From the NCBI GenBank assembly GCA_015660995.1, contig JACTUC010000008.1, positions 10,645 to 74,644 of the forward strand: 64,000 nucleotides of DNA, given 5' to 3'. Origin of the DNA: Candidatus Methanomethylicaceae archaeon (GTDB lineage Archaea; Thermoproteota; Methanomethylicia; Methanomethylicales; Methanomethylicaceae). Shown in pieces: positions 8,288-47,399 of the stretch. Position numbers and translations under genes: made by a program. The notes beneath the pieces are model-generated. The model had not been told where the DNA came from. It was given only the letters and a program-made list of their open reading frames with translations, and ran no database searches. Positions within the stretch are counted from its first letter, which is position 1. Each line of letters opens with the position of its first letter.

Positions 8288-8392
8288 GGGCCGGTAGCTC
8301 AGACTGGCAGAGCGCCCGCTTGGCATTGCGGGCATGCAGCCTCCGCACCAAAGTGCGGGAGGCCACGGGTTCAAATCCCGTCCGGTCCACCA
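8288..8392 (+). tRNA. tRNA-Ala (anticodon GGC) with a 28-nt intron between positions 37/38; CCA encoded
   Basis: Acceptor GGGCCGG/CCGGTCC gives the G3:U70 Ala identity pair, with A73. The D-arm is GCTC-AGACTGGCA-GAGC. Anticodon stem CCCGC/GCGGG only pairs after removing 8326-8353. T-arm is ACGGG-TTCAAAT-CCCGT. Confidence 0.75.
8326..8353 (+). other. Putative tRNA-Ala intron (canonical 37/38 position)
   Basis: TTGCGGGCATGCAGCCTCCGCACCAAAG. Removing it restores a 7-nt anticodon loop TTGGCAT. Contains a hairpin that could contribute to a bulge-helix-bulge. Confidence 0.6.
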
Positions 8393-13367: not shown

Positions 13368-14408
13368 TTACAGTAGCAGCAGCCAGATGCCCATTATCAA
13401 CATCAGGACAGCTGAGACTATGCGTATGTACTGCTTCGGAATATTTGGGGATTTGGCGAACCGATAGACCAGTAGCACCACCACCAAAGGAAGCACGAAT
13501 ATGAGATTATAGAGGAGCAGATAACCCAGGATCCCTAGTCCAGTTATTCCGTACTGGGTCAGTAGGGTCAGGGCAAGGAAGTAGGGCCCGCCCGTGCAGG
13601 GGAGCTCGATAGCCGAGATCCCCACACCGACTAGGAATGCAAAATAGGGGGAAGTGGCTGTGTCTATGAGCCTCTTTATGGTTGGCTTGCTCCGGTCAGG
13701 CAGCTTGATGAAAAGGGAAACGAAAGCCAAGCCAATAGCTAGGACCCCAACTACCTTGGTGGTATAGGTCGGCAGGTTAAACTGCTGAAGTATGGTGAAG
13801 AGGCCAAAGCCGATGGCAAGGTAAGAGAGAAAGTTGCCCAAGATGTAGGCGAAACCGGTTTTCCAGACCGACCTCGATGCTGCGGAAAGAGCGACCAATA
13901 ACACTATGAGCACCGTGATCGCGCAGGGGTTGAGCGAGTCCGCAAAGGCCATCCCGAATATTATCCCGAGGGGCGGCGGGCCGACGGGTTTTGAGGGTGT
14001 GCCGTTGCAGGTTGGGCATTGAACTCCAGTGTCATTCAGAAGCAGGGGGGTTAGTTCGCTCTCGATCTGGTCGACACCCACCAAGGTCTGGGTTCCGATA
14101 AAGACCACCGGCCAGTTAGGGCTGGTAATGTTGTGGCAGTTGTAGTACTGAACCATCAGATCGTAGTTCGAGGAGTTGGTGATCTCGAAATCAGTTACGG
14201 TCAAGTTGGGGAATTGTTGCTCCACCTGGAGCATATAGGTTTTAGCCTCTTCGCAGGCGCTGCATCCATTAGCATAGAAGAAGTATATGCACTGCGGCGT
14301 AGTTGTTTGGTTCGCCTGAGGCGCTGCCATGGTAGGGTGTGTAAATACCGCTGACGCCATCAGAATCAGCAACAATATCAGGAGAAGCTTTTTGTGATCC
14401 GCAGCCAC
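13368..14408 (-). CDS. Thioredoxin-like domain fused to DsbD/CcdA-type disulfide transporter
   Basis: Signal peptide, CSAC thioredoxin CxxC, then 6 TM helices with the conserved NPCA and ELPCTGGPY cysteines of the DsbD/CcdA family. Confidence 0.65.
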   Translation of the reverse strand: MAADHKKLLLILLLILMASAVFTHPTMAAPQANQTTTPQCIYFFYANGCSACEEAKTYMLQVEQQFPNLTVTDFEITNSSNYDLMVQYYNCHNITSPNWPVVFIGTQTLVGVDQIESELTPLLLNDTGVQCPTCNGTPSKPVGPPPLGIIFGMAFADSLNPCAITVLIVLLVALSAASRSVWKTGFAYILGNFLSYLAIGFGLFTILQQFNLPTYTTKVVGVLAIGLAFVSLFIKLPDRSKPTIKRLIDTATSPYFAFLVGVGISAIELPCTGGPYFLALTLLTQYGITGLGILGYLLLYNLIFVLPLVVVLLVYRFAKSPNIPKQYIRIVSAVLMLIMGIWLLLL

Positions 14409-14508
14409 GAAAAAACCTGCCTCTATTCTTATTATACTCCTCCATTCTGGTCCTCATTTAATAAAGATTTTCAGGATGGTAACTAGCGGCTACGGCTGAC
14501 TCTTACGG

Positions 14509-17462: not shown

Positions 17463-17557
17463 GCTCCGGTAGTATAGTCCGGTCAAGTATACTGGCCTCT
17501 CGAGCATCAAAGCAGAGAAAGTCAGTGACACGGGTTCGAATCCCGTCCGGAGCACCA
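17463..17557 (+). tRNA. tRNA-Glu (anticodon CUC) with about 17-nt intron at 37/38; CCA encoded
   Basis: Acceptor GCTCCGG/CCGGAGC plus A73, and the characteristic Glu D-arm GTAT-AGTCCGGTCAA-GTAT. Anticodon stem CTGGC/GTCAG closes only after removing 17503-17519, giving loop CTCTCGA. T-arm is ACGGG-TTCGAAT-CCCGT. Confidence 0.7.
17503..17519 (+). other. Putative tRNA-Glu intron
   Basis: AGCATCAAAGCAGAGAA. Its 3' part (AGAG) can pair with the CTCT of the anticodon loop as expected for a BHB. The exact boundary is ambiguous by one A. Confidence 0.55.
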
Positions 17558-24237: not shown

Positions 24238-24741
24238 ATGATGGCAATGCCGTTAGTGCTGGTCACCGTGGTCTTCGGCAAAGAGGAGGCAGCCAAGCTT
24301 GAAGTGCTCGACTGCATATATGCGTTAGACCCGAATGCCCATTTCCTGGAGCACAAATATGGCGGGCTTTTAATACTGGAAACTGAAATTGCTTCGGATG
24401 CTGCTGCAGAGGCGATAGAAAGGTACCCTACAAGCCAAGTCTTCAAAGTGATGCCCGTGGACTCCGCCGTGAAAGCCGAAGTTGGCGCAATAGTCTGCGA
24501 GGTCCTTAGGCTGGTTCCCCAATCACAGAGCAGTGTCTCCGTCGTCTGCCAAAGGCGGGGGAGAGCGATCGCCTCAAGCCACGATCTGGAAGTGGAGGTC
24601 GGATCTGAGCTCAAGTCAAGAGGACATATAATTGACCTTGAGAACCCGCAGCTGGTCGTGCGCATAGATATTATAGGCGAACGCGCAACTATCTCGGTGA
24701 GGCCACCCGCCAGTTACTTCATCAAAAGGAGGGGAAATTGA
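24238..24741 (+). CDS. THUMP-domain protein
   Basis: Archaeal THUMP-only protein of about 165 aa (GERATISVRP, ELKSRGHI). Stop overlaps the next gene by 4 nt. Confidence 0.5.
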   Translation: MMAMPLVLVTVVFGKEEAAKLEVLDCIYALDPNAHFLEHKYGGLLILETEIASDAAAEAIERYPTSQVFKVMPVDSAVKAEVGAIVCEVLRLVPQSQSSVSVVCQRRGRAIASSHDLEVEVGSELKSRGHIIDLENPQLVVRIDIIGERATISVRPPASYFIKRRGN

Positions 24742-25745
24742 GATTGGGCAAGCTTAAGGTCGGCAAGATCCCCAACGAAATCCTTGAGAAGATCGTGTTC
24801 AGCAAGCTGGGCGCAGAGGACCCCTCGGTAATTCTTGGGCCCAACGTAGGAGAGGATGCTGCTCTGCTTCCCGTGAGATCTGGTGTGATCGCTTTCAAGT
24901 CGGACCCCATCACAGGGTCCGTTGACGAAGTTGGGTGGCTGGCGGTCTATGTGAATGCCAATGATATTGCCACAAAGGGGGCGATTCCCAAGTGGTTCCA
25001 GCAGTGCATACTGCTCCCGGAAGGTTCCACGACTGAAGACCTCGAGGCAATATGCGAACAGATCGACAGCGCTGCCCAGGAACTCGGTGTATCCATAGTT
25101 GGCGGCCACACTGAGGTGACGCGTGGCATAAGCCGCCCTCTCGTGATAGGATCCATGATTGGGGTAATTCAGGACGAGCGGTTCCTCACGTCGGGTGGCG
25201 CCCGCCCTGGAGACCTGCTGTATATGACAAAGAGCGTTGGCATCGAGGGTACAGCGATACTCTCCTCTGATCGAAAAATAACCTCGAAATTCAGCAAAGG
25301 CTTCACCTCAAGGTGCAAGAAGCTCATCAAGCTGATCAACGTCGTTCCAGAATGCTCGAAGCTCAGTCGCCTCGAGGGGGTGACGTCGATCCACGATCTC
25401 ACCGAAGGGGGCCTCCTAGGGGGAGCTTGGGAGCTTGCGGAGGCTGCTGGGTCGGGAATATCTCTTGACCTGCACCCCGTGCCGGTCATGAAGGAGACTG
25501 CAGATCTATGCCGCGAGCTGGATCTCGACCCATATCGCCTAATCAGCTCTGGGTCTGTAATCTTCACAGTACGAAAGGGCTCGGAGCGAAGGGTTGAAGA
25601 AGCCCTTACCCAAGCCGGAATCAAGCACACTAGGATAGGCAAGGTGCTCCGTCCAGCCAGCGGGAGATTCTACCTGGACCTCTCTGGTTCGAAACGCCCA
25701 CTGATCCCCCCTTCGGCGGACGAGCTCTGGCGGGGCCTGGCATAA
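24738..25745 (+). CDS. AIR-synthase-related (PurM-like) protein, ThiL/HypE-like
   Basis: VDEVGWLAVYVNANDIATKGAIP and SIVGGHTE are PurM-superfamily motifs. About 335 aa. Confidence 0.6.
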   Translation: MRLGKLKVGKIPNEILEKIVFSKLGAEDPSVILGPNVGEDAALLPVRSGVIAFKSDPITGSVDEVGWLAVYVNANDIATKGAIPKWFQQCILLPEGSTTEDLEAICEQIDSAAQELGVSIVGGHTEVTRGISRPLVIGSMIGVIQDERFLTSGGARPGDLLYMTKSVGIEGTAILSSDRKITSKFSKGFTSRCKKLIKLINVVPECSKLSRLEGVTSIHDLTEGGLLGGAWELAEAAGSGISLDLHPVPVMKETADLCRELDLDPYRLISSGSVIFTVRKGSERRVEEALTQAGIKHTRIGKVLRPASGRFYLDLSGSKRPLIPPSADELWRGLA

Positions 25746-25809: not shown

Positions 25810-27030
25810 ATGCAACCTATGGATGGGTATCCTTCGTTGGCGTACGACATAATCGCTCATGAGATGGACAGGCCAACACTCTTTAAGGACGAGTCGAAAC
25901 TCTTCCCGGACCATGTGCCCACGAACCTTGTCCACAGGGAACCCGAACTGAAAGCATTGAGCAGGGTATTCAAGGTGCTGCTGGAGTCCCCGGGCTCCGT
26001 AGCTCAGAAGGTAACGCTCGTGGGCGACGTCGGCGTTGGAAAGACTGCTGTTGCGAAGAGGTTTGGATCCAGCATCGAGTCGCTGGTAAAGGGCAAGGGG
26101 ATCAACCTCCGTTACGTCCACGTCAACTGCTACAAGGACCGCACACTCTTCCTGGTCATAAAGAAGGTTGCACAGCAGATACTCCCGAGCATACCCGACC
26201 GCGGATTCTCGGCCCAGGAGCTCTTCGAGACGCTCTGGAAGATCCTCGAAGACGAGAACATCTACCTGCTACTCGCGCTGGACGAGGCTGACTTCCTTAT
26301 CTCAGCCTCTGGCGAGAAGGACGCGCCCCTCTACTTCCTCTCCCGGGTTGCCGATGAATACCTGAATCGTCCCCAGAGGCTCAGCCTCATCTTGATTACG
26401 AGAAATCTCGAATTCCTCTCGGGTCTGGACAAGAGCGTTCAGAGCAGCCTCCTTCACAACGTGGTGCGCTTCGAGAAGTACACCTCCGAGCAGCTCTTTG
26501 ACATAATCCACGCCAGGGGCATGGATGCTCTCAAGGAGAGCGCCCTTAGCGAGGAGGTACTGGCCATGATCTCGGACATATCCGCGCCACGCGGCGACGC
26601 CAGGTATGCGCTTGAGCTGCTCTGGCGCGCGGGCAAGTACGCCGATGCCGAGGCTGCGGAGAGGATACTTCCCGAGCATGTGAGGAAGGCGCAGCTGGAC
26701 GTCTCACAGTTCCCCATGCACACGGTGCAGGAGCTGCCCCTGCACGAGAGGCTCTTCCTGCTCTCGGTGGCGAAGGTGCTGAAGAGAAACAAATCTGCCT
26801 ATGTAACCATGGGCGAGGTGGAGTCGACCTACCGCGTTCTCTGCGAGAGCAACAGCATAGAGCCTAGGAAGCACACTCAATTCTGGGAGTACCTGCAGAA
26901 CCTGAAGAACCTCGGTATACTATACACCAAGATCTCGGGCGCAGGCTTCAGGGGGAAGACAACGCTGATAGGGCTGCTCAACCTCTCCGTAGAGGCTGTG
27001 GAGCGGGGTCTGAAGGATCTGGAGGGATGA
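25810..27030 (+). CDS. cdc6: Orc1/Cdc6 replication initiator
   Basis: AAA+ Walker A VGDVGVGKTAV, Walker B LLLALDEAD, sensor regions and a C-terminal winged helix. Confidence 0.9.
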   Translation: MQPMDGYPSLAYDIIAHEMDRPTLFKDESKLFPDHVPTNLVHREPELKALSRVFKVLLESPGSVAQKVTLVGDVGVGKTAVAKRFGSSIESLVKGKGINLRYVHVNCYKDRTLFLVIKKVAQQILPSIPDRGFSAQELFETLWKILEDENIYLLLALDEADFLISASGEKDAPLYFLSRVADEYLNRPQRLSLILITRNLEFLSGLDKSVQSSLLHNVVRFEKYTSEQLFDIIHARGMDALKESALSEEVLAMISDISAPRGDARYALELLWRAGKYADAEAAERILPEHVRKAQLDVSQFPMHTVQELPLHERLFLLSVAKVLKRNKSAYVTMGEVESTYRVLCESNSIEPRKHTQFWEYLQNLKNLGILYTKISGAGFRGKTTLIGLLNLSVEAVERGLKDLEG

Positions 27031-27034
27031 AAAG

Positions 27035-27307
27035 ATTTCTGTAGAGGACATATTCTCGTCCAAGGGACGGGTAAAGGTACTGAAGGAGCTTGCCGAGCGT
27101 GGCGAGATGAACATATCTGAGATAACACGGCGCACAAGCTTGAACCACACAACGACCTCTGCGCATCTGAAGAAGCTCTGCGAGCTTGGCATAGTGGAAG
27201 AGAAGAGGTTCGGGCGCATCAGGATATTCAGGTTCATGAAGGAGGACCCGCGAGGATGGGCGATCCAGACCCTCTTCGAGTCCTTCAAAAAGGGGTCGAA
27301 GGCATGA
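27035..27307 (+). CDS. ArsR-like winged-helix transcriptional regulator (start codon uncertain, probably ATT 27035)
   Basis: DIFSSKGRVKVLKELAERGEMNISEITRRTSLNHTTTSAHLKKLCELGIV is an ArsR/HTH_20 pattern. The frame is open from 27014 with no ATG/GTG/TTG before the internal Met at 27107. GGAGG sits at 27021-27025. Confidence 0.5.
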   Translation: MSVEDIFSSKGRVKVLKELAERGEMNISEITRRTSLNHTTTSAHLKKLCELGIVEEKRFGRIRIFRFMKEDPRGWAIQTLFESFKKGSKA

Positions 27308-27756
27308 GCGTGAAGATGATCGACATAAGTTCGAAGGATCCGGTCAGCAGGGAGGCCTCGGCCACAGGTACGATCCAGCTGAAGGAAAGCACCGTCGAAC
27401 GCATAAAGTCAAACGGCGTCGAGAAGGGTGACGTCCTGGCAGTCGCAAGGGTCGCAGCAGTCCAGGCTGTGAAAAGGACCCCAGACACAATCCCCCTCTG
27501 CCACCAGATACCCATCGAGCACGTGAGCGTCGACTTCGAGATATCTGCGTCCCTGCTCAGGGCCACGGTCAAAGTGAAGGCATGCGCCAAGACCGGCGTC
27601 GAGATGGAGGCGCTGGCGGGGGTCTCTGCCGCACTGCTAACGGTCTGGGACATGACTAAGAAATATGAGAAGGACGAGGCAGGCCAGTATCCATCAACAG
27701 CTATAGGAGAGATTCGGGTCCTGGAGAAGCGCAAAGGGGCAAGGGGAAGAACCTAG
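27304..27756 (+). CDS. moaC: Cyclic pyranopterin monophosphate synthase MoaC
   Basis: MSVKMIDIS start (ATGA overlap with the upstream gene). Conserved MoaC core, including DMTKKYEKDE. Confidence 0.85.
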   Translation: MSVKMIDISSKDPVSREASATGTIQLKESTVERIKSNGVEKGDVLAVARVAAVQAVKRTPDTIPLCHQIPIEHVSVDFEISASLLRATVKVKACAKTGVEMEALAGVSAALLTVWDMTKKYEKDEAGQYPSTAIGEIRVLEKRKGARGRT

Positions 27757-28278
27757 ATGGCCAAGGATCACCATTCCGATCTTCCAAAGGATCTAAAGTT
27801 TACAGTGATCGTCACCAGCGATACCATCCTCTCGAAGAAATCCCGGGGAGAGCCTTTCAACGACTCTAGCGGCGATGCGGCTGAATCCCTCGTTAAGGGC
27901 GCTGGATTCTTCTTGGCTGACCGCATCTACCTGCCAAACGATGTCCAATCAATAAGAACGGCGGTGGGTTCAATCATTTCAAGCGGATCAGCTGACGTTG
28001 TAGTCGTGAGCGGCGGCACTGGCGTCGGCAGAAAGGACGTGACCGTGGAGGCAGTTGCCCCCCTTTTGGAGAAGGTCCTGCCCGGCTTCGGCGAGCTGTT
28101 TAGGCGCCTTTCCTATGACACAGTCGGGACATCCTCCATAGCATCCAGATCAATGGCAGGTATCGCGAAAGGAGTTCTTGTCTTTCTGCTTCCCGGTTCC
28201 CCAGATGCAGTCAGGCTGGCTTTGGAGAAGATAATCCTTCCAGAGTCCCCGCACCTTGCCAAGATGTTTCGCGGGTGA
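27757..28278 (+). CDS. moaB: Molybdenum cofactor biosynthesis protein MoaB/MogA
   Basis: SGGTGVG motif and typical length. Confidence 0.85.
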   Translation: MAKDHHSDLPKDLKFTVIVTSDTILSKKSRGEPFNDSSGDAAESLVKGAGFFLADRIYLPNDVQSIRTAVGSIISSGSADVVVVSGGTGVGRKDVTVEAVAPLLEKVLPGFGELFRRLSYDTVGTSSIASRSMAGIAKGVLVFLLPGSPDAVRLALEKIILPESPHLAKMFRG

Positions 28279-28321: not shown

Positions 28322-28834
28322 ATGCGAAGTAGAGCCCCCGTGGTTTGCATCGTGGCACCGGGCAGCGGTTACGGGAAGACCGCTCTCATAGACTCATTGC
28401 TGGCGGGCCTAAAACAGCAGGGCATCAAGGCCTGCGTCCTGAAGCATTCAGGCCACGATTTCGAGCCTGACGTTGAAAAGGACACGTGGTTCTTCAGGCA
28501 GGCAGGTGCCATTGGCTCGGCAGTAATAACCGAGGCGGGCCTCGCCTCCTTTTACGTGCCCTGTAGCACCCTCGAGAGCTCCCTCGCCATCCTCGAAGGG
28601 CTCGAGCCAGACATCATCCTCTGCGAGGGCTTCAAGGAGTCGAACCTACCAAAAATACTCTTGCTCAAGGCCGAGGACGAGTTTGGGATAATCCCTTCGC
28701 TCACATCTGTCTTAGCTGTTGTGTATGATAGCGAATACCCTGAATGGGTCAAGGTTCCTGTACTCAAGCAAGCCAAGGAGGTACTGAATTTCCTGCTCGA
28801 TTACCACCGCAGATCTAAGGAGGGGCTGGTCTGA
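28322..28834 (+). CDS. mobB: Molybdopterin-guanine dinucleotide biosynthesis adapter MobB
   Basis: P-loop GSGYGKT plus the LKHSGH motif. Confidence 0.8.
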   Translation: MRSRAPVVCIVAPGSGYGKTALIDSLLAGLKQQGIKACVLKHSGHDFEPDVEKDTWFFRQAGAIGSAVITEAGLASFYVPCSTLESSLAILEGLEPDIILCEGFKESNLPKILLLKAEDEFGIIPSLTSVLAVVYDSEYPEWVKVPVLKQAKEVLNFLLDYHRRSKEGLV

Positions 28835-29742
28835 TCGATCCATACGGCAGGGCAATCAAGGGCATAAGGATCAGCCTCACCCAGAGGTGCAACCTCAACT
28901 GCGTCTATTGCCATCATGAGGGCGAGGCCGCGGTCTCGACGGAGATGACAACGGTCGAGGTACTTCGCACAGTGAAAATTGCTGCTGAGCTGGGTGTTAT
29001 AAGGGTCAAGTATACGGGGGGAGAGCCCCTCCTCAGGAGCGACCTGATCGATATCATCAGGGGAACAACCTCAATGAAGCTGGAGGACGTCGCGCTCACT
29101 ACTAATGGCTCGCTCCTTAAGGCAAGTGCAAAGGGGCTGTCCGAAGCTGGCCTCAGGCGCCTCAATATTTCGCTCCCCAGCATGGCACCGGACGTCTACT
29201 CCACGCTGACCGGGGGGGAACTTGGGGATGCCCTAGACGGCATAAGGGAAGCCAGGAACTTGGGCATGGAGATCAAACTGAACATGGTAATAATGAAGGG
29301 TATTAATGCAGGCGAGGTAGACCGCTTCATGGGGCTTGCGCGGGACTTGGGCGGTAGCCTCCAGCTCATTGAGCTTGAGGACCTCAGCCTTGAACCGGGA
29401 TTTTTCAGCAAGTACCATCTGGACATCTCGGACATCGAGGAAGAGATAGTGCATATGGCCCAGCGGACAGTAAAAAGGGAGGACATGAACCACCGGGCCA
29501 GGTATCTTGTGGACGGTCTGCAGGTGGAGGTTGTTCGGCCCATTAACAACCCGAACTTCTGCAGTAGATGCACCCGCCTGAGGGTCACAAGCGACGGGAA
29601 GCTCAAGCCCTGCCTTATGCGTTCGGACGACCTGATCGACCTGCTGAAGCCGATGAGGTGCGGATCTTCCGATGCTGAGCTGAAAGGGCTCTTCCTAAAG
29701 GCGGTCTCCCTCAGGTCTCCTTACTACCAGCAACGCGGCTGA
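28834..29742 (+). CDS. moaA: GTP 3',8-cyclase MoaA (radical SAM); start codon uncertain (ATC 28834 or CTG 28831)
   Basis: The radical-SAM CNLNCVYC motif lies upstream of the first ATG (28945). The frame is open from 28819 with no ATG/GTG/TTG before the motif. GGAGG sits at 28819-28823. Confidence 0.75.
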   Translation: MDPYGRAIKGIRISLTQRCNLNCVYCHHEGEAAVSTEMTTVEVLRTVKIAAELGVIRVKYTGGEPLLRSDLIDIIRGTTSMKLEDVALTTNGSLLKASAKGLSEAGLRRLNISLPSMAPDVYSTLTGGELGDALDGIREARNLGMEIKLNMVIMKGINAGEVDRFMGLARDLGGSLQLIELEDLSLEPGFFSKYHLDISDIEEEIVHMAQRTVKREDMNHRARYLVDGLQVEVVRPINNPNFCSRCTRLRVTSDGKLKPCLMRSDDLIDLLKPMRCGSSDAELKGLFLKAVSLRSPYYQQRG

Positions 29743-30910
29743 GCGCTCCTCCACCTGTTGCACCTGCCCCCTCGATGATCTCGATGTAGGGCAAGTACTC
29801 CGTCGCCACCTTCTTCATGGAAGCATGCATCCCTCCCCCGATCTCCCTCAAAGCCTCCTTTTTATTGCCCCTGACCTCCTTCGTTGCGCTGAGCATACTT
29901 ATCCTACGAGGGAAGTTGTACCTCGTGAATCTATATTCCCCCCTCCTCGCTAGCGCTGCACCGCCAGTGGCAAGCTCGATGGCATAGCTGAAGAGATCCC
30001 ACATCTGTTTCCTCTTGACTCTGTTCATGAAGATATCAGCCTTCGATAGCCAGTCATACGCGAACTCGCGGTCTGCCGGGTCTGGGTACTGATTTGGGAT
30101 GTTCTCGTTTATCCACTGGAGAAGCATCTCCGGGTCGACAGACGCGCCTTCAGCTGCTATCTTGGCTTCAAGGCACCCCTCAGCCGAGAATATGGACTTC
30201 ATCACGTCGAAGATCCCTCTCTCCTGCACCCTTGAGAAGAGCATCCCGACCTCCTCATCCTTGAGAGCCTTCCTCCCCTCAGCGAGCATCTGCAGGTCGT
30301 TTATCGCGGCCCTCAGATCCCCTCCAGCCCTCTCTGCAACCCTGGCTATCAGGGCATCGTCCACTGCGACGCCGTTGAGCTTTGCTATCCTTCTCAGCTG
30401 GACCTCGATGCTGGGGGACCTGATCCTCCTGAACTGGATGATCTCGCATGCATCTCTGAGCGACCTGAACTTCGGGTCCCACGGGTCGTTCACAGCCATG
30501 ACTATGGGGTACCGTGACTCCTTTACCACCCTGAGTATTGCCGATAGCCCTCCCCTGTCCTCCCTTCCGGAGATGCCATCCAGCTCGTCCAGAAAGATGA
30601 GCTTCCCCTTCCTTCCGAAGAGGGACCCTTGGAGGGACGCCCCGCCGGCCACCCTCTCCACGAGTTCCTCTGTCCTAGAATCGCTTGCGTTCATTTCGAC
30701 TAGGTCGAGGTCAAGCTCCTTCGCGATAAGGCCTACTGCCACGGACTTTCCGGTGCCTGGCGGGCCAGTCAGGAGCACTGCTCTCTTGGTCGTTGCCTTG
30801 CCGTCTTCCCTTGACCTGACCCAGCCAAGCAGCTGCTCCACTGCGGGGTAGTTGCCAGCTATCTCCTTGAGGTTGGAGGGCTTGTAGCGTTCGGTCCAGG
30901 GCAGGCTCAA
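29711..30910 (-). CDS. rfcL: Replication factor C large subunit
   Basis: ERYKP box II, Walker A LLTGPPGTGKS, followed directly by rfcS. Confidence 0.85.
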   Translation of the reverse strand: MSLPWTERYKPSNLKEIAGNYPAVEQLLGWVRSREDGKATTKRAVLLTGPPGTGKSVAVGLIAKELDLDLVEMNASDSRTEELVERVAGGASLQGSLFGRKGKLIFLDELDGISGREDRGGLSAILRVVKESRYPIVMAVNDPWDPKFRSLRDACEIIQFRRIRSPSIEVQLRRIAKLNGVAVDDALIARVAERAGGDLRAAINDLQMLAEGRKALKDEEVGMLFSRVQERGIFDVMKSIFSAEGCLEAKIAAEGASVDPEMLLQWINENIPNQYPDPADREFAYDWLSKADIFMNRVKRKQMWDLFSYAIELATGGAALARRGEYRFTRYNFPRRISMLSATKEVRGNKKEALREIGGGMHASMKKVATEYLPYIEIIEGAGATGGGALSRVAGSKET

Positions 30911-30916
30911 GAGGGA

Positions 30917-31885
30917 TCACCCCTTGCTTCCTATCAGAGAGATTTTGGCCAGAAGGGCGTTCAGCTGCACTTCGTCGCTTCCGCCCTCGAGCAGCCTGTA
31001 CTCGGCCTCGCCAATGACCTCTATGAGCTGGAGCTTCCTTCTCTCCTCAAGCTCGAGCCCGAGGAGTTCCCTGTGGATCTGTTTCACCACATCTAGGCCT
31101 GAGAGCCCATAGGTAACCATGAGCTTCACCGTGTCCTCTCTGGCGGAGTTGAAATCCCCGCTGAGTGCCTTCTTGAGCATCTCCTTCAGCTCTTTGGGTG
31201 AGACCCTGCCCGAGATTCTATAGACCACCTCATCATCCACAGTGCCGCCCACAGCCGACGCCGCCTGAAGGGTGTTTATGACCCTCCTGAGATCCCCCCC
31301 TCCAGCATAGATGAGAGCATCCATTCCCTTCGGAGTAATTCCCACTTTCTCGATCCCGCAGATGTACTTCACCCTCGCCTTTATGTCGTCCGGCTTGAGC
31401 GGGGCGAACCTGAAGAACGCGCACCTTGACTGAATGGGTTCGATTATCTTGCTAAAATAGTTGCAGGCGAGTATGAACCTGCAGGTATTCGTATACATCT
31501 CCATGGTACGCCTCAGCGCCTGCTGCGCATCTGTCGTCATATTGTCCGCCTCGTCCAACACCAAGATCTTGAAGGGGGCATCCGCCATGCTTATGGTTCT
31601 AGCGAAGTCCTTGATGGTCGTCCTGACCACGTCTATCCCCCTCTCGTCGCTGGCATTGAGTTCGAGGTAGTTCTTATGGTACTCCTGCCCGTACAGGTCC
31701 TTCGCGAGGCAGAGGGCAGCGGTGGTCTTCCCATTACCTGGTGGGCCTGCGAAGAGGCAGTTGGGCATCGACCTCTCCTTGGCAAACCGCTTGAGCCTGT
31801 CGACTATTTCATGCTGATCTACGATCTCGTCGAGTGTTTTAGGACGGTACTTCTCTGTCCACATCACTTCATGGATCTCTGGCAA
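30917..31885 (-). CDS. rfcS: Replication factor C small subunit
   Basis: EKYRP, GPPGNGKTT, DEAD-like LDEADNM and SRC motifs. 322 aa, so no intein. Confidence 0.9.
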   Translation of the reverse strand: MPEIHEVMWTEKYRPKTLDEIVDQHEIVDRLKRFAKERSMPNCLFAGPPGNGKTTAALCLAKDLYGQEYHKNYLELNASDERGIDVVRTTIKDFARTISMADAPFKILVLDEADNMTTDAQQALRRTMEMYTNTCRFILACNYFSKIIEPIQSRCAFFRFAPLKPDDIKARVKYICGIEKVGITPKGMDALIYAGGGDLRRVINTLQAASAVGGTVDDEVVYRISGRVSPKELKEMLKKALSGDFNSAREDTVKLMVTYGLSGLDVVKQIHRELLGLELEERRKLQLIEVIGEAEYRLLEGGSDEVQLNALLAKISLIGSKG

Positions 31886-32058
31886 TTACTGGCCCCCCTA
31901 TCTCCTTTCCTCTCCTCTAAACGGTCGAATATTTAACTAAAGCGCAGCATCGCAGTCTCTCCCCGCTCAGCAAGATTTTTACCCCAAACCTGGCAATATC
32001 TCGACCGGCAAGCACACTTTTATCTGACACCGACCTAATACGTTGGCGGGAAAAATCG

Positions 32059-32766
32059 ATGCTCAGGGCCAGAGACATCACGCTCCTTGCATTTTATACC
32101 GGCCTCGTGACCGTATCGACATTGATCTTTACAGTTTATGTACCTGCCACTAGGGGTTACTTCAACGTCGGCGAGGCAGCCGTCTACATTGTAGCATTGC
32201 TCGCTGGCTCCTACGCAGGTGCCTTCGCTGGAGGGCTCGGCTCTATGCTCTCTGACATAATACTCGGCTACTTCTTCTTCGCCCCTGCTACGCTGGTGAT
32301 AAAAGGGGTGGAGGGCGGCGTTCTGGGCTTCCTGGCCGGCAAGAAACCCTCCCTCTCGCGTCATCAATGGATTGTGGCCTCGGTTGCCATTGGCGTGATC
32401 CTCTCCATTTCGGCATACGTCATTGGCTATTCCGTGGGCCCCACGCAGATCTCCGTAGGCTTTCCGGGATCAAGCAACTCAATCACGGTCACGGTGACAC
32501 CCTTGGTGTGGACCATAATAGGCTTGGTGGCCTCCCTGTCCGTTGTGCTCACATCCCTCCTCGCCAAGCCCGAGGTGGGGTGGCTCGTCCTGTCAGCAGC
32601 CCTCTCAGGCTTCCTGATGGTGCTGGGCTACTTCCTCTTCGAGCAGTTCGTCCTTGGCTTCGCAGCCATCGCAGAGGTCCCATTCAATATTGTCCAGGTC
32701 CTAGTGGGCATACTTATAGCGGTCCCAATATACAATTCCCTGAAAGCTTTGCAGAGGCGCAAATGA
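32059..32766 (+). CDS. ECF-transporter S-component-like membrane protein
   Basis: Six TM helices with FNVGEAAVYIVALLAG and GGLGSMLSDIILGY, typical of ECF substrate-capture components. Confidence 0.5.
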   Translation: MLRARDITLLAFYTGLVTVSTLIFTVYVPATRGYFNVGEAAVYIVALLAGSYAGAFAGGLGSMLSDIILGYFFFAPATLVIKGVEGGVLGFLAGKKPSLSRHQWIVASVAIGVILSISAYVIGYSVGPTQISVGFPGSSNSITVTVTPLVWTIIGLVASLSVVLTSLLAKPEVGWLVLSAALSGFLMVLGYFLFEQFVLGFAAIAEVPFNIVQVLVGILIAVPIYNSLKALQRRK

Positions 32767-32797
32767 ATTTAATTGGGTATGATAGAGAGATCAAATT

Positions 32798-33367
32798 ATG
32801 TCTCGCCGGGCTTCGGACGATATCAAGACCTCACAGTTCCTCTACGAGGAGGAACTTGTGGGCGTAGTATTTCAGAAGCCGCTCCTGGCGACCAAAGTGG
32901 GCGCTCTACAGCTCGGCGCTTTCGTTGAAGGCAACGAGGCAAGGATCCCGCTCTGGGCAGCGAAGGCCCTAGAGGCAGAGGGCATAGTCAAGCTGAATCC
33001 CGATCAATCCCAGCAGCTCATAGCCAGCGAACTCTTCAAGCTTTCATGGAAGGAGGAGCGGAACGAGGCGTTGCTCGTGCTGCCACCCAATTTCTACCCG
33101 AAGCTTAGAGAACTCACGAATCAGCTCAACGAGAGCATTAAGCAGAACCCCACCCACACGACCCTGAGCGAGCAGCGGCAGGCTTTCATGAAGGCGAAAG
33201 ACCTTATTAACTGCAGGCTGCAGAAGATTCTCCGCCTTTCGTTTGAGAGGAACCCTTCAAAACCGCTGGTTGAGGCCCTCCAGCCCGAGGAGAAGTCCCT
33301 CTTCAACAACATTAGGTCCGAGATAGACGACTGGCGTGAGAAGATCCTTCTCGAGGAGACGAAGTGA
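32798..33367 (+). CDS. gins23: GINS subunit Gins23 (Psf2/Psf3-like)
   Basis: N-terminal beta (B) domain with IPLWAAKALEAEGIVKL and helical A domain with LPPNFYPKL. Directly upstream of mcm with a 4-nt overlap. Confidence 0.55.
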   Translation: MSRRASDDIKTSQFLYEEELVGVVFQKPLLATKVGALQLGAFVEGNEARIPLWAAKALEAEGIVKLNPDQSQQLIASELFKLSWKEERNEALLVLPPNFYPKLRELTNQLNESIKQNPTHTTLSEQRQAFMKAKDLINCRLQKILRLSFERNPSKPLVEALQPEEKSLFNNIRSEIDDWREKILLEETK

Positions 33368-35445
33368 TAATCATGACAGAAATACTGGCCGAGGTTATGG
33401 ATTATCGAGAGAGGTTTGTTAACCTCCTCAAGTCCTTCCAAGACAAGAAGGGCGCTTTCAAGTATAGGGAAGCGCTGGCAGAGATGGCAACCCAGGGGAA
33501 GGTCTCCCTAGTAATAGACTTCGACGACCTAATCTCATTCGACCCGGACTTGGCATCAGATCTCAAGGACAAGCCCATGGAGATTGTACCCAAGGCCGAC
33601 GCAGCGATCCTCGATGCGATGCGCGTCGAGAACATGCAGTACGCAGCCAAGGTCAAGGGCACTAAGGTTAGGTTCCGCAACCTGGACGAGGTCGTGCCGC
33701 TGCGCTCGCTGAAGTCCCGCCACATGGGCAGGCTCCTGATGGTGGAAGGCATAATCACCCGGTCATCAAGCATAAAGCAGCTCCTGAGGACCGGCGTCTT
33801 CCAGTGCCCCCGGTGCGGCGAGAAGATGGTTGTGGAGCAGGGAGGCACGGCCCTCATAATGCCGCCCAGGTGCGCCAACGAAGACTGCCAAAGAACGGGC
33901 TTCTTCAAGCTGATCCCGGAGGAGTCGACCTTCTCCGACTGGCAGATGATCTCGCTCCAGGAGAAGCCTGAGGAGCTCCCACCTGGCCAGCTCCCGAGGT
34001 CGGTCGAGGCGATTCTCCAGGGCGACCTCGTGGACATCTCACGTCCCGGTGACAGGATATCGCTGGTGGGTACGCTCCAAGCCAAGCAGGAGTTCACGTC
34101 GAAAGGGTTCAGGCTTGCGACCTTCTCCACAGGCATTGAGGCGAACAACCTGGAAGTCTCCGAGAAGGGCGCCACGGAGGTCCTGGTAACGCCCGAGGAT
34201 GAAAAAATCATAAAGAAGCTCGCCAAAGACCCCGCCTTGTACGAGAAGATATTTGGCTCCATCGCTCCCTCCATTTACGGCTACGAGGAGATCAAGGAAG
34301 CAATAGCTTACCAGCTGGTTGGTGGCGTCCCCAAGACCATGCCCGACGGCATCAGGATAAGGGGTGATATCAATATTTTGCTGGTGGGAGATCCTGGGAC
34401 TGCGAAGAGCCAGATGCTTCAATACATCGCCCGAATTGCCCCCCGTGGGGTTTACACCTCGGGCAAGGGCTCGACTGCTGCAGGCCTGACTGCGACGGTG
34501 ATAAGGGATAAGAACACCAACGAGTTCTTCCTTGAAGCTGGTGCCTTAGTATTAGCAGATAAGGGCATAGCATGCATCGACGAGATCGACAAAATGCGAC
34601 CGGAGGACCGTTCCGCCATACACGAGGCCATGGAGCAGCAAACCATAAGCATAGCCAAAGCTGGCATTGTGGTTCAGCTCAACGCCAGGAGCAGCATCCT
34701 CGCTGCAGCCAACCCTGCCTTCGGCAGGTATGTCCCTCAGAGGACCATTGCTGAGAACATCCAGGAGCTGCCGGTCACAATACTCTCAAGGTTCGACCTG
34801 ATCTTCACCCTGCTCGACAGGCCCGAAGAGGGTCGCGACAGGAGCATGACCGAGCACATCCTCAAGCTCCACCAGGGCATAAGGATCGAGAAGGAATCAA
34901 TGATAGAGCGAGAGTTCTTCAAAAAATATCTCTTCTACATAAGGAAGAACGCGAACCCGAGGCTCTCCGAAGGGTCGATTAAGAAGATAGAGGAGTTCTT
35001 CCTCGCGATGAGGGCCCAGGGCGAGGGGGCAGACTCACCAGTTCCAATAACCATGAGGCAGCTGGAGGCGATCATAAGGCTCTCCGAGGCTCGGGCCAAG
35101 CTTGCCCTGTCAAAGGAGGTTACGGAAGAGGATGTTGCCCATGTGACCCGGCTCATCACACACTTCCTGACCCAGGTCGGTACCGACCATGCTACGGGCA
35201 AGCTTGATATAGACACCCTCATGGTGGGCAGGCCAAAGTCCACCAGCGACAAAATGGCTGGATTGTTCGATCTCCTCATGACGATTCAGAAGGACAACGA
35301 AGGAGGGCCAATTAAGAAGGAAGTGTTCCTCGAGCGTGCCGAGCTGGAGCACTACGGCAGGGAGTTCGTTGAGAAGAACCTGCAGCAGTGGCTCAATGAC
35401 GGCGTGATCTACGAGCCCAAGGCTGGCTTCATCAAGAAGACCTGA
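33364..35445 (+). CDS. mcm: MCM replicative helicase
   Basis: C4 zinc finger (CPRCGEK...CANEDC), Walker A GDPGTAKSQ, Walker B CIDEIDKM and the arginine finger. 693 aa, so no intein. Confidence 0.95.
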   Translation: MIIMTEILAEVMDYRERFVNLLKSFQDKKGAFKYREALAEMATQGKVSLVIDFDDLISFDPDLASDLKDKPMEIVPKADAAILDAMRVENMQYAAKVKGTKVRFRNLDEVVPLRSLKSRHMGRLLMVEGIITRSSSIKQLLRTGVFQCPRCGEKMVVEQGGTALIMPPRCANEDCQRTGFFKLIPEESTFSDWQMISLQEKPEELPPGQLPRSVEAILQGDLVDISRPGDRISLVGTLQAKQEFTSKGFRLATFSTGIEANNLEVSEKGATEVLVTPEDEKIIKKLAKDPALYEKIFGSIAPSIYGYEEIKEAIAYQLVGGVPKTMPDGIRIRGDINILLVGDPGTAKSQMLQYIARIAPRGVYTSGKGSTAAGLTATVIRDKNTNEFFLEAGALVLADKGIACIDEIDKMRPEDRSAIHEAMEQQTISIAKAGIVVQLNARSSILAAANPAFGRYVPQRTIAENIQELPVTILSRFDLIFTLLDRPEEGRDRSMTEHILKLHQGIRIEKESMIEREFFKKYLFYIRKNANPRLSEGSIKKIEEFFLAMRAQGEGADSPVPITMRQLEAIIRLSEARAKLALSKEVTEEDVAHVTRLITHFLTQVGTDHATGKLDIDTLMVGRPKSTSDKMAGLFDLLMTIQKDNEGGPIKKEVFLERAELEHYGREFVEKNLQQWLNDGVIYEPKAGFIKKT

Positions 35446-35459
35446 TCGGAGGGCCCAGT

Positions 35460-37667
35460 ATTAGGGTAGACGACCTTCCCATCCGCGACGAAGCCAAGAG
35501 GCTCTACCGCGAGATGGGCATTACCGATCTTTACCCTCCCCAGGAAGAAGCTGTGAAGTCAGGGGTTCTGGAAGGCAAGAACCTTGTCCTGGCCATCCCC
35601 ACAGCCTCTGGAAAGACGATGGTGGCCGAGCTATGCGCCCTCAAGCACGTGATGGAGCGCCGGGGGAAGGCCCTTTACCTTGTTCCACTCAAGGCCCTTG
35701 CCTCAGAGAAGTACGAAGATTTCAAGAAGTTCAACAAAATAGGGCTGAGGGTGATACTCTCCACGGGCGACTTTGACACCCTGGATCCGACGCTCGGAAG
35801 GTATGACATAATTATCGCAACAAATGAGAAGGCGGACTCGATCTTCCGGCACAAGCCTGCTTGGATCAACAGCCTTACACTGCTAGTCGTTGACGAGATT
35901 CATCTCTTGGGCGATGGGTCTAGGGGTCCTACGCTGGAAGCTGTCATGACTAGGTTCCGCCTCCTCAATCCTAAAGCGCAGATACTGGCCCTCAGCGCGA
36001 CAATCAGCAACGCCGACGAGATGGCTGGCTGGCTGGGTGCCCAGCTTGTCACGAGCGATTGGCGACCAGTTCCCCTCATGGAGGGTGTCTATTTCCACGA
36101 ATCTGTAATGTTCAGTGACGGCCAGAACAAGAAGGTGGAGGGCGTCGAGACTGACCCCGTGGCACGCTTGGCAGTGGACGTGATAAAGTCTGGAGGCCAG
36201 ATGCTCGTCTTCGCTGCGAGCAGGCTCTCTTCCACCTCCCTGGCCAAGCGGATGGAAACGCCCGTAAGAAACCTGCTCAAGGGGAGCGAGGAGAAGAAGC
36301 TGCTTGAGCTCTCGTCCAGGATACTAAAGATGGGGGAGCGCACCCGCATATCCAACAAGCTTGCCAAGGCTGTCTCCAATGGTGTCGCCTTCCACCACGC
36401 GGGCCTGACCTACGAACAGAGGAAAGCGGTCGAGGACGCTTTCCGATCGTTTTTGGTCAAGGTAATATGCGCCACGCCTACTTTGGCCGCAGGCGTCAAC
36501 CTACCCGCGAGGCGGGTACTCATCTACGATTACAGGCGCTACGAGGCAGGCCTCGGCCAATCGAACATACCCGTGCTGGAGGAGAAGCAGATGGCTGGCA
36601 GGGCTGGCAGACCCAAGTACGACAAGGAGGGCCAGGCAATAATCCTTGCAAGGAGCGAAGAGGAACGCGACTTTCTGCTGGAGCAGTACGTGCTCGCCAA
36701 GCCCGAGAAGGTCTGGTCGAAGCTGGGCAACGCCTCCTCGTTGAGGTCCCACATACTGGCAGCAATCTCCATGGGGCTGGCATGCTCCCAGGAGGGTGTC
36801 TTCGACTTCCTTGAGAGATCCTTCTGCTCCTACCAGTACGGTATAAACTCATTCAAGGGCGCGATCCTCGAATCGCTGGATATGCTTACGAGCGAAGGCA
36901 TGGTGAAGTCTGAGGGGAAAGATCTGCTCCCGACCCCGCTTGGCAGGAGAGTGGCAGAGCTGTACATAGACCCGAAGTCCGCCGTTATCCTGAAGAACGG
37001 GCTCAAGATCCGCCGCTCTGGTGTGCCTGCCATAGGCTACCTCACGCTGATCTGCCACACCCCTGACATGCCCAAGCTCTACATCCGCAGAAAGGAGCTC
37101 GAGGAGCTGAAGGCGTTCCTTGAGTCCAACTGCGACCTCTTCCTTTACGACCTTCCCCAGGATGAAGGCTTTGACTATGAGATGCTCCTCACGGAAGTGA
37201 AGACGTCCCTCCTCATCAAGGACTGGATCGACGAGCTGCCTGAGGACGCGATAGTGGAGAGGTTCGACGTAGGATCCGGGGACATTTACGCCTACGTCGA
37301 GTCGGCAAAGTGGCTGGTCCACTCCGCCCACGAGCTTGCGAAGCTGATGGGGTACCCAGAGTCTATGAAGCCGCTCTTGGACTTGAACGTGAGGATCGAG
37401 AACGGCGTGAAGGAGGAGCTCCTGCAGCTTATATCGCTGAAGGGCGTAGGCAGGGTTAGGGCCAGAGCCCTCTTCTCGGCAGGCTACAAGGGCATCGATG
37501 ACCTGAAGAGAGCTTCCCCAACGGAACTTGGCAGGATCCCAACATTGGGGCCGGAGACCATACGATCGATTAAGGAGCAGGTGGGTGGTAGCGTCACCAA
37601 GGAGGAGTGGTCTATGGTTAAGTCCAGATCCGGCACCAAGCAGTCGTCCATGGACGACTACGGATAA
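35460..37667 (+). CDS. hel308: Hel308/Hjm Ski2-like DNA helicase (start probably ATT 35460)
   Basis: AIPTASGKT, DEIH and the C-terminal HhH domain. Residues upstream of the first ATG (RVDDLPIRDEAKRLYRE) align with the conserved Hel308 N-terminus. GGAGG sits at 35448-35452. Confidence 0.9.
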   Translation: MRVDDLPIRDEAKRLYREMGITDLYPPQEEAVKSGVLEGKNLVLAIPTASGKTMVAELCALKHVMERRGKALYLVPLKALASEKYEDFKKFNKIGLRVILSTGDFDTLDPTLGRYDIIIATNEKADSIFRHKPAWINSLTLLVVDEIHLLGDGSRGPTLEAVMTRFRLLNPKAQILALSATISNADEMAGWLGAQLVTSDWRPVPLMEGVYFHESVMFSDGQNKKVEGVETDPVARLAVDVIKSGGQMLVFAASRLSSTSLAKRMETPVRNLLKGSEEKKLLELSSRILKMGERTRISNKLAKAVSNGVAFHHAGLTYEQRKAVEDAFRSFLVKVICATPTLAAGVNLPARRVLIYDYRRYEAGLGQSNIPVLEEKQMAGRAGRPKYDKEGQAIILARSEEERDFLLEQYVLAKPEKVWSKLGNASSLRSHILAAISMGLACSQEGVFDFLERSFCSYQYGINSFKGAILESLDMLTSEGMVKSEGKDLLPTPLGRRVAELYIDPKSAVILKNGLKIRRSGVPAIGYLTLICHTPDMPKLYIRRKELEELKAFLESNCDLFLYDLPQDEGFDYEMLLTEVKTSLLIKDWIDELPEDAIVERFDVGSGDIYAYVESAKWLVHSAHELAKLMGYPESMKPLLDLNVRIENGVKEELLQLISLKGVGRVRARALFSAGYKGIDDLKRASPTELGRIPTLGPETIRSIKEQVGGSVTKEEWSMVKSRSGTKQSSMDDYG

Positions 37668-45588: not shown

Positions 45589-46533
45589 TTGTATATTTTG
45601 GTGGAGTTGTACGTCGGCGCAGGGGGATGGGCTTACTTCATAGTTCCAGATGAGAGCCCTTTAAAGGCCTACTCGAAGACTTTCAACTTCGTAGAAGTGA
45701 ACTCGACTTTTTACGAAATCCCTCAACCCGGTGCTGCAGACGCTTGGAGGAGGGCAGTGCCGCAGTCATTCAGGTTCGCAGTGAGGGCCAATAAGGCGAT
45801 AACCCACAACGATCCATTCGCGCCTTCGCCGGAATCTGAAGACGCACTGCAGGCTACTTTGGAGGTATGCCAAGCGCTAAAGGCAGACGTGCTCCACTTC
45901 CAGACCCCCCAATCATTCAGGATTGGCGATATCGAAGCAAAGCGGATAGGCGATTTCTTCAGTACACTGAATGCGGGCAGCATGCTCTTGGCACTGGAGG
46001 TGAGGGGCGCTTCAGGCGGGGATCTTCCCCATAGCCTAGTAAAGGCAATGCAGGACAATTATATTATCCACTGCGTCGACCTACTGAAAGGCGAAGCGCC
46101 GGCATATGCCGCCGACACACTCTACACCAGAACCTTCGGCAAGGGTGATCACAACATATACCAACCCGATGATGGTGAGCTCAAGGCGGTACATATGACT
46201 GCTTCCATGTACACGAAAGCATACGTGGCCTCCCACAGCGCTAAAATGTACTCAGACGCTGCAAGGCTGATCACATTTGGCAAGACCGGCAAATTCCCCA
46301 TGGTAACCAAGTGCACAGGGCTGAATTCGCTGACTTCTGTCTTGGAAGAGGACGCCAAGTTCCCAGCGACTAAGGACGAGCTGATAAAGAGGCAGGGATG
46401 GAAGCTCTATGACGCATCGGAGGAAGTGAGGGTCAGGGCCGAGGAGCCGCTGAGTAAGCTGCCAGACAGGACTTATGGCAATGTAAATGACCTCTTGCAA
46501 GAACTACATTATCAGGGAGGCGGGGCAGTCTGA
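45589..46533 (+). CDS. DUF72 (UPF0759) family protein, divergent paralogue
   Basis: VGAGGWAY...NSTFYEIP aligns to the DUF72 N-terminal GTSGWSY...STFY motif of the next gene. Confidence 0.6.
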   Translation: MYILVELYVGAGGWAYFIVPDESPLKAYSKTFNFVEVNSTFYEIPQPGAADAWRRAVPQSFRFAVRANKAITHNDPFAPSPESEDALQATLEVCQALKADVLHFQTPQSFRIGDIEAKRIGDFFSTLNAGSMLLALEVRGASGGDLPHSLVKAMQDNYIIHCVDLLKGEAPAYAADTLYTRTFGKGDHNIYQPDDGELKAVHMTASMYTKAYVASHSAKMYSDAARLITFGKTGKFPMVTKCTGLNSLTSVLEEDAKFPATKDELIKRQGWKLYDASEEVRVRAEEPLSKLPDRTYGNVNDLLQELHYQGGGAV

Positions 46534-46547
46534 CTGGCAGGATCCTT

Positions 46548-47399
46548 TTGGGCACGTCCGGCTGGAGCTACAAAGAGTGGGTGGGCCCATTCTATGAGAA
46601 TGACGAGGAGAGTAAGCTCAGAGCCTACACCGAAGTCTTCGGGACGGCAGAGATCGATTCCACATTCTACGCCTACCCTGCAAAGGGTCTTGTCATGGGT
46701 TGGAAGATGAATACGCCCGAAAAGTTTCTTTTTACGGCAAAGCTCCCAAAGGTCATAACGCATGAGAAGATGCTTGATCTCTCGCAGGGTGCGGATCAGG
46801 ACCTGATGAGGTTCGTTGATCTGATGGCGCCTCTTGCCGGGGCTAATAAGCTTGGGTGCCTTCTGATACAGCTCCCGCCAAGCTTCAGCTATGACCCCGG
46901 CAGGCTGGAAGCCTTCTTCAAGGTTATGCCCAAGGGGGTCAGGTTCGCCGCAGAGTTCCGCAACAAATCATGGATGAGAGATGAGACGTGGGAGCTCCTT
47001 AAGGGATACAACGTGGCCTATGTCAATGTGGACGAGCCCCTGCTCCCTCCTGAGGTGCACATAACAGCTGACTTTGCCTACTTCAGGTGGCACGGGCATG
47101 GGAAGAATGTCTGGTTCGACTACAGCTACAGCAAGGAAGAGTTGGAGCCGTGGGTGCTAAAGGTGAAGGAGGTTACCGGAAAAGTGAAGGAGGTCTACGG
47201 CTACTTCAACAACCATTTCCATGGTTATGCAGTTGAGAACTGTTTGCAGGTGATGGAAATGCTAGGGGTAGCGGGTGATGCCCAGAGGGACGCAAAAGAA
47301 AAGATCGAGTCATACAGAGTTTCCTCCGAAAATATCAAAGACAAGACCAAGCATAAGGGGAAAGCTGGGGGAACTCTGGACGTTTTCATGAAAAAATGA
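46548..47399 (+). CDS. DUF72 (UPF0759, YecE-like) family protein
   Basis: Canonical MGTSGWSYKEWVGPFY N-terminus and TIM-barrel-like length. Confidence 0.75.
   Translation: MGTSGWSYKEWVGPFYENDEESKLRAYTEVFGTAEIDSTFYAYPAKGLVMGWKMNTPEKFLFTAKLPKVITHEKMLDLSQGADQDLMRFVDLMAPLAGANKLGCLLIQLPPSFSYDPGRLEAFFKVMPKGVRFAAEFRNKSWMRDETWELLKGYNVAYVNVDEPLLPPEVHITADFAYFRWHGHGKNVWFDYSYSKEELEPWVLKVKEVTGKVKEVYGYFNNHFHGYAVENCLQVMEMLGVAGDAQRDAKEKIESYRVSSENIKDKTKHKGKAGGTLDVFMKK

Follow-up and report, generated by a model that had tools for sequence, protein, structure and literature searches.

A probable AUU start in a winged-helix gene behind orc1/cdc6, and further candidate near-cognate starts, in a 64-kb stretch of Methanomethylicaceae DNA

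In reviews of archaeal translation initiation, AUG, GUG and UUG are the only start codons listed (PMC7531240), and archaeal aIF1 has been reported to discriminate against non-canonical starts (PMC6237735). Near-cognate initiation codons as such are well known in bacteria; in Escherichia coli AUU, AUC, AUA and CUG initiate at approximately 1-2% of AUG, and infC and pcnB are the only confirmed natural AUU genes (10.1101/063800). In Haloferax ribosome profiling, near-cognate codons made up approximately 30% of the putative alternative initiation sites and were left out of the subsequent analysis (PMC7261190). Termination-reinitiation couples the translation of co-directional genes that overlap or lie very close together in both archaea and bacteria, and this coupling collapses at a distance of approximately 20 nt (PMC6728339, PMC10666635). 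A full-text literature search for start-codon work on Methanomethylicia returned nothing relevant. Here we analyse a stretch of 64,000 nucleotides from a Candidatus Methanomethylicaceae archaeon (assembly GCA_015660995.1, contig JACTUC010000008.1, positions 10,645 to 74,644), hereafter the window, and in particular a small gene encoding a winged-helix protein directly behind orc1/cdc6. Comparison with its relatives suggests that the 90-residue product is probably translated from AUU at 27035, in place of the ATG or TTG with which orthologues start at the same position, and we consider it very likely that this gene has a non-canonical start of some kind.

Start site of the winged-helix gene

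The elements around the start, all on the forward strand, are as follows.

25810..27030, + strand: orc1/cdc6, with its stop codon TGA at 27028-30
27011-13, + strand: in-frame stop TGA, closing the winged-helix frame on the 5' side and leaving it open from 27014
27017..27019, + strand: ATC, alternative near-cognate codon inside cdc6, start of a 96-aa coding sequence (CDS) in the NCBI record
27021..27025, + strand: GGAGG, Shine-Dalgarno core within the final cdc6 codons (L-E-G), with a 9-nt spacer to ATT
27027..27029, + strand: out-of-frame ATG overlapping the cdc6 stop (ATGA), a decoy whose frame yields MKRFL and then a stop
27035..27037, + strand: ATT, at which the winged-helix gene is proposed to start, in frame and 4 nt past the cdc6 stop
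27035..27307, + strand: winged-helix (ArsR-fold) CDS, 90 aa counted from the proposed start, including the stop TGA at 27305-07
27107..27109, + strand: first canonical ATG, corresponding to internal Met25, where the JGI and Logan gene callers start (66 aa)

From 27014 the winged-helix frame reads AGG ATC TGG AGG GAT GAA AAG ATT TCT GTA GAG GAC, and ATG, GTG and TTG are all absent in frame between 27014 and 27106. Direct reading of the DNA thus bears out the original prediction, which had been made from the sequence alone, in describing a frame open from 27014 without GTG or TTG ahead of its first ATG, and in placing GGAGG at 27021-27025, 9 nt before an in-frame ATT. Its statement that the first ATG lies 30 codons in was correct in that no earlier ATG exists, but the figure was approximate, as ATG 27107-09 is the 32nd codon counted from 27014 and codon 25 counted from ATT. 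GGAGG is over-represented in the window (244 occurrences on the two strands vs 193 expected), and its presence 5-10 nt before any given codon is expected by chance in approximately 1% of cases. When 26995-27075 was folded as RNA, the ATT region paired with a portion of the Shine-Dalgarno site in a weak hairpin, which was not significant (z = -1.87; equalled in 11 of 200 shuffles).

We retrieved 164 loci encoding relatives of the winged-helix protein and projected the protein alignment onto the DNA, counting the start column in 48 distinct Methanomethylicia sequences with at least 69% protein identity. A canonical start was found at the ATT column of the window in 45 of these sequences (30 ATG, 11 TTG and 4 GTG), and the remaining three sequence types, namely the window and its two closest relatives, all carry ATT. 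The orthologues with canonical starts are preceded by GGAGG or GGAGGc and encode proteins beginning M-SVEEIFSSKGRVKVLK, and the translation of the window from its proposed start, ISVEDIFSSKGRVKVLKEL..., agrees with the conserved N-terminus of more than 100 homologues. The alignment proposed as a check of the original prediction therefore places the orthologue N-termini at the ATT column and not at the internal Met, which is itself conserved as an internal residue.

The two relatives sharing the ATT differ from the window in the four nucleotides that separate it from the cdc6 stop. One of them (L001/L002/L003/L085, 88% nucleotide identity to the window) reads GGAGGGATGACAAG-ATT with the spacer CAAG, and the other (L004/L086, 77% nucleotide identity) reads GGAGGCATGATAGT-ATT with the spacer TAGT, so that the spacer of the window, AAAG, differs in both although the ATT is kept. 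In the nearest outgroup clade (84-89% protein identity), the gene starts with TTG 3-5 nt after the cdc6 stop and has the same GGAGG in the final cdc6 codons, and ATT therefore appears to be a direct replacement of the start codon. A single change from ATG or TTG to ATT in the ancestor of the window's clade would be the most parsimonious account of these sequences. Comparison of the three ATT lineages over codons 2-24 gives 7-9 synonymous vs 2 non-synonymous differences (dN/dS 0.05-0.07), and the rest of the gene has a dN/dS of 0.00-0.04 with synonymous sites near saturation.

Structure and domain content were examined for the 90-residue product. Pfam HTH_5 (PF01022) matches residues 10-55 with 46.4 bits against a gathering score of 22, and the AlphaFold2 model (pLDDT 92.3) has helices at 3-6 and 10-22, a helix-turn-helix at 27-34 and 38-51, a wing at 54-67 and a C-terminal helix at 72-86. 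The best solved structures found by Foldseek were YgaV, AntR, SqrR, PagR, BigR and CzrA, with TM-scores of 0.70-0.78, and the distant sequence matches of the protein are ArsR/SmtB chains. ArsR/SmtB sensors carry a paired-Cys (CXC) metal site. This site is absent from the winged-helix protein, which has one Cys, in the motif LKKLCELG, and the NCBIfam ArsR/SmtB model NF033788 scored below its cut-off (50.2 vs 55 bits). The earlier description of the product as ArsR-like is thus sustained by the fold and by Pfam HTH_5, but not by the NCBIfam cut-off or the cysteine content.

The gene belongs to a forward-strand operon in the order AIRS-domain gene, orc1/cdc6, winged-helix gene, moaC, moaB, mobB and moaA; on the identical orc1/cdc6 gene of other assemblies (L166-L169, below), Pfam identifies AAA_22, Cdc6_lid and WHD_Cdc6. 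The remaining members, apart from moaA, are listed here.

24738-25745, + strand: AIRS-domain gene, operon member
27304..27756, + strand: moaC, whose ATG overlaps the winged-helix stop (ATGA), continuing the operon
27757-28278, + strand: moaB, operon member
28322-28834, + strand: mobB, operon member

The open winged-helix frame and cdc6 overlap by 17 nt, and the gap from the cdc6 stop to the ATT is 4 nt. The winged-helix gene starts 3-5 nt beyond the cdc6 stop in the closest relatives, and 5-41 nt lie between the matched cdc6 and winged-helix segments in the Methanomethylicia orthologues. Throughout the retrieved loci, the winged-helix gene was found directly 3' of orc1/cdc6 in approximately 150 of 164, mostly with 5-80 nt between the matched segments, and the pairing spans Methanomethylicia, Bathyarchaeia, Thorarchaeota and other Thermoproteota. 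Since the gene is fixed downstream of orc1/cdc6 across archaeal phyla, there are hints that the protein is a partner in replication initiation rather than a metal-sensing ArsR, which we offer as a lead only.

Alternative starts and a possible initiation mechanism

The identical DNA has been annotated in different ways, and we compared the window with four independent assemblies (NCBI GCA_049514975.1, JGI 3300038417, Logan SRR7027739 and JGI 3300018024), in which the loci identical or nearly identical to window 22798-43367 are designated L166-L169. All four match the window DNA with 0 to 5 mismatches per 15-20 kb and have the same bases at the ATT site. Over a comparison of 20.6 kb, the window is 100% identical to contig JBEKUN010000002.1 of GCA_049514975.1 and to one JGI contig, and two further independent assemblies differ from it by 2 to 5 bases. 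From this same DNA, the NCBI pipeline calls a winged-helix product of 96 aa with an ATC start, vs 66 aa in the JGI and Logan calls.

The alternative that survives best, which we nevertheless regard as unlikely, is initiation of a 96-residue protein at the in-frame near-cognate ATC 27017. The NCBI record of the identical contig uses this codon, its gene at L166 4220-4510 mapping onto window 27017-27307, and an SD-like motif stands 7 nt before the ATC, GGGGT in the window and GAGGT in L001. On the other hand, the ATC sits inside cdc6, 11 nt before the cdc6 stop, where elongating ribosomes pass; its column is ACC in L004/L086, and no orthologue with a canonical start begins there. The residues that it would add fall in the overlap with cdc6 and are not conserved in their own right, and neither the Pfam domain nor the modelled structure requires anything upstream of the ATT. 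We favour ATT over ATC because it lies in the orthologous start column, is kept in three lineages, follows a GGAGG shared with orthologues and stands just past the cdc6 stop.

A start at the first canonical ATG, 27107, is very unlikely. It is the sole canonical start in the frame, and the gene calls of L167-L169 accordingly comprise 66 aa. It would convert the internal Met25, conserved in all orthologues, into an initiator residue, leaving the purifying selection on codons 2-24 unaccounted for, and judged by the Pfam match and the AlphaFold2 model it would delete helix 10-22 and a third of the HTH_5 domain; moreover, direct reading finds no Shine-Dalgarno motif before it. We rejected this start on conservation, dN/dS and structure.

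A still smaller chance attaches to the possibility that the gene has lost its start and is decaying, or that it is made only as a fusion to Cdc6 through a +1 frameshift in the 17-nt overlap. The missing canonical start and a winged-helix frame that is open across the end of cdc6 are compatible with either scenario, but the winged-helix ORF is intact in all relatives, and dN/dS between the ATT lineages is 0.01-0.07 over the whole gene while synonymous divergence is near-saturated. Furthermore, the overlap has no conserved slippery site, and the two genes do not keep a constant frame relation, the cdc6 stop of L088 lying in the winged-helix frame; pseudogene and fusion were rejected on these grounds. 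Neither decay nor truncation at Met25 is tenable, because codons 2-24 are under purifying selection and helix 10-22 with a third of the domain would be lost.

The least probable alternative is that an indel from sequencing or assembly in the A-run 27030-33 masks a start at ATG 27027, or that a programmed -1 slip occurs there, an idea suggested by the overlap of this ATG with the cdc6 stop, as at moaC, and by the sequence MKKISVED... that one added A would yield, but rejected since the four independent assemblies are identical at the run, the relatives, which carry GATGACAAGATT and GCATGATAGTATT, lack it (L001-3 and L004, so that no slippery run is conserved) and yet keep the frame relation and the ATT, and orthologue N-termini read MSVEE... 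rather than MKKISVE.... The view in the original prediction that the missing start is not a sequencing error is therefore upheld, with four assemblies in agreement and diverged relatives excluding an indel or assembly error.

Returning to initiation at AUU 27035, several observations weigh against it. The in-frame ATC 27017 is available and used in the NCBI record, albeit behind the weaker SD-like motif GGGGT, and L004/L086 have an in-frame GTG 7 codons upstream that could be their start. Given the reported discrimination by aIF1, initiation at AUU may also be of very low efficiency. Finally, a crude scan of the pre-start regions of long ORFs in approximately 85 related loci, which returned many spurious hits, found that near-cognate codons were hardly if at all enriched after GGAGG (CTG 11 vs 6.9 expected, ATC 8 vs 5.8 expected). 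Because of this last result, the pattern is best regarded as gene-specific and is not established genome-wide; the claim that it is systematic holds in so far as the arrangement recurs at moaA and hel308 (below).

If AUU 27035 is the start, the GGAGG in the final cdc6 codons would position the small ribosomal subunit 9 nt upstream of it, and the start is probably also supplied, by putative coupling, with ribosomes that have just finished cdc6 at its stop codon 4 nt before. The initiator Met-tRNA would pair with the near-cognate AUU, and Met would be the first residue of the protein; the strong Shine-Dalgarno site together with a ribosome delivered by cdc6 would let the initiator tRNA accept AUU. 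By analogy, the winged-helix protein is likely to be expressed at a low, or tuned, level compared with Cdc6, because near-cognate initiation in E. coli reaches approximately 1-2% of AUG and archaeal aIF1 is reported to discriminate.

Candidate near-cognate starts elsewhere in the window

Window ORFs of at least 110 codons were scanned for a long open stretch before the first canonical start, and those of at least 90 codons for Shine-Dalgarno-led starts. Besides the winged-helix gene, the following elements on the forward strand emerged.

28819..28823, + strand: GGAGG before moaA, 7 nt before CTG
28831..29742, + strand: moaA, with its proposed start CTG 28831-33 overlapping the mobB stop (CTGA)
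35448..35452, + strand: GGAGG before hel308, 7 nt before ATT
35460..37667, + strand: hel308, with its proposed start ATT 35460-62 lying 14 nt after the MCM stop TGA at 35443-45
46530..47399, + strand: second DUF72 gene, probably starting at CTG 46530-32, with a CTGA overlap with the upstream stop and GGAGG at 46516-20 plus 9 nt

The winged-helix, moaA, hel308 and DUF72 genes are all internal operon genes directly behind another ORF. From their sequences, moaA (CUG) and hel308 (AUU) appear to share the design of the winged-helix gene, in which a near-cognate codon follows a strong Shine-Dalgarno site directly behind another ORF, and the DUF72 gene (CUG) probably does so too. The original prediction had reported the same arrangement at these two genes, and both do lack a canonical start and have a near-cognate codon 7 nt after GGAGG that aligns with position 1 of the family model, but the codon of moaA is CTG, not ATT. 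Together, three to four of the roughly sixty genes in the window would have near-cognate starts, and we claim no genome-wide rule.

In moaA, the open frame begins at 28819, and ATG 28945, the first canonical start, lies 42 codons into the frame, 38 after the CTG and downstream of the C-x3-C-x2-C radical-SAM motif. Orthologue starts aligned with CTG 28831 are TTG in the nearest relatives and ATG or GTG elsewhere, and a second lineage (L018/L102) has its own moaA CTG after GGAGG plus 6 nt. Positions 1-303 of the archaeal MoaA model TIGR02668 match residues 1-300 counted from the CTG, with 342.7 bits against a cut-off of 325.25. The NCBI record likewise starts moaA at CTG 28831, giving 303 aa vs 265 aa from the same DNA in the other pipelines.

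The hel308 frame is open from 35400, with the first canonical ATG at 35514, 38 codons in, and all pipelines (L166-L169) call a 717-aa Hel308 from an internal ATG. Relatives of this gene were reached via the neighbouring GINS gene, as a Hel308 homologue search gave mostly partial proteins and missed close relatives. Their start column contains ATC in L173, ATT in L165 and in L178-180, and TTG in L176, and the ATT or ATC of L173, L165 and L178-180 is preceded by GGAGG or GGTGG plus 7 nt. In L173 the LYPPQ motif precedes the next canonical codon and is removed by the gene call, and in L178-180 an in-frame stop 9 codons upstream leaves ATT as the sole start candidate, on which the NCBI CDS does start. 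Homologues from Bathyarchaeia begin M/L/V-[RK]-I-E-E-L-P at the ATT column, and positions 1-714 of NCBIfam PRK00254 correspond to Hel308 residues 1-726 counted from the ATT. The predicted AUU/AUC start of hel308, kept in four diverged lineages, is stable over family-level divergence, because the lineages with ATT or ATC share only 68-76% Hel308 identity. We also considered CTG 35442, which forms a CTGA overlap with the MCM stop and aligns with an ATG in L165, as the start of hel308; it is less likely than ATT 35460, since L178-180, with their in-frame stop, lack such a codon upstream of their ATT, and the ATT is where the family models begin.

For the second gene of the DUF72 tandem, CTG 46530 is the probable start, as judged from this genome alone; the first canonical TTG, at 46548, would drop the RILLG strand ahead of the GTSGW motif. 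A possible fifth case is found on the reverse strand, where a secreted thioredoxin-like ORF (13368-14453) has ATA 14432 at its head, 6 nt after GGAGG, and its first canonical codon, GTG 14408, is without a good Shine-Dalgarno site. Roughly a dozen gene starts in the window have a strong Shine-Dalgarno site, and TTG and GTG are more frequent among these than ATG.

The region 29711-37667 forms a replisome cluster comprising the large and small RFC subunits on the reverse strand, an ECF riboflavin S component, GINS, MCM and Hel308, in which two genes not listed so far are placed as follows.

32798-33367: GINS protein, 189 aa, replisome cluster
33364-35445: MCM, replisome cluster

MCM and Hel308 of the window are without inteins, and relatives have inteins in MCM (L165, L173, L176) or in Hel308 (L178-180). 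Elsewhere in the window, Rfam detects a tRNA of 102 nt at 8288-8389 (+ strand), probably tRNA-Ala with the anticodon GGC, which has an insertion of approximately 30 nt in the anticodon arm and the loop UUGGC and was missed by ARAGORN; a tRNA-Arg(TCG) at 17463-17557 (+ strand) is also long, at 95 nt.

The window thus offers what appear to be natural, evolutionarily stable near-cognate cases, namely an AUU winged-helix gene, an AUU/AUC hel308 and a CUG moaA. NCBI annotation already uses non-canonical starts for the winged-helix gene (ATC) and moaA (CTG), and a set of conserved archaeal near-cognate examples appears to be undescribed. Gene callers of the Prodigal type give a 66-aa fragment for the 90-aa protein, a 265-aa MoaA that lacks most of what precedes the C-x3-C-x2-C motif, and a Hel308 without its N-terminus, and such truncation errors pass into the protein databases for this methane-cycling class. 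A tentative and rather doubtful extension is that Methanomethylicia, or at least Methanomethylicaceae, have a relaxed start-codon stringency at Shine-Dalgarno-led internal operon genes. If so, several per cent of the genes, core replication and repair genes such as hel308 among them, would have AUU, AUC or CUG as stable, selectable starts, with lineage-specific features of aIF1, the initiator tRNA or the ribosome as possible causes, and standard gene callers would systematically truncate or miss genes across the class.

Comparison with described systems

The winged-helix protein resembles the ArsR/SmtB repressors in its HTH_5 domain above the gathering score and in its structural matches with TM-scores of 0.70-0.78, whereas it differs from them in its NCBIfam score below the cut-off, its single Cys and its fixed cdc6 neighbour.

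With regard to the start codon, the closest counterparts are the AUU genes infC and pcnB of E. coli, which likewise have AUU at the expected start position behind a Shine-Dalgarno site and are expected to initiate weakly and in a manner sensitive to initiation factors (10.1101/063800). In contrast to E. coli, where IF3 checks the start codon, this task falls to aIF1 in the archaeon, where AUU initiation is deduced from sequence, and the genes in the window show no sign of an autoregulatory link to an initiation factor. The numbers differ as well, with two confirmed AUU genes per genome in E. coli vs several candidate near-cognate genes within 64 kb here.

With regard to the arrangement of the genes, the closest counterparts are the coupled gene pairs of Haloferax volcanii and E. 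coli. The genes in the window are co-directional in the same manner, with a start 4 nt past the stop (winged-helix gene) or in an NTGA overlap (moaA and DUF72), and have their Shine-Dalgarno site within the end of the upstream gene. The described pairs combine ATGA or TGATG with canonical starts, whereas the putatively coupled genes of the window have CTG in the overlap or ATT after the stop.

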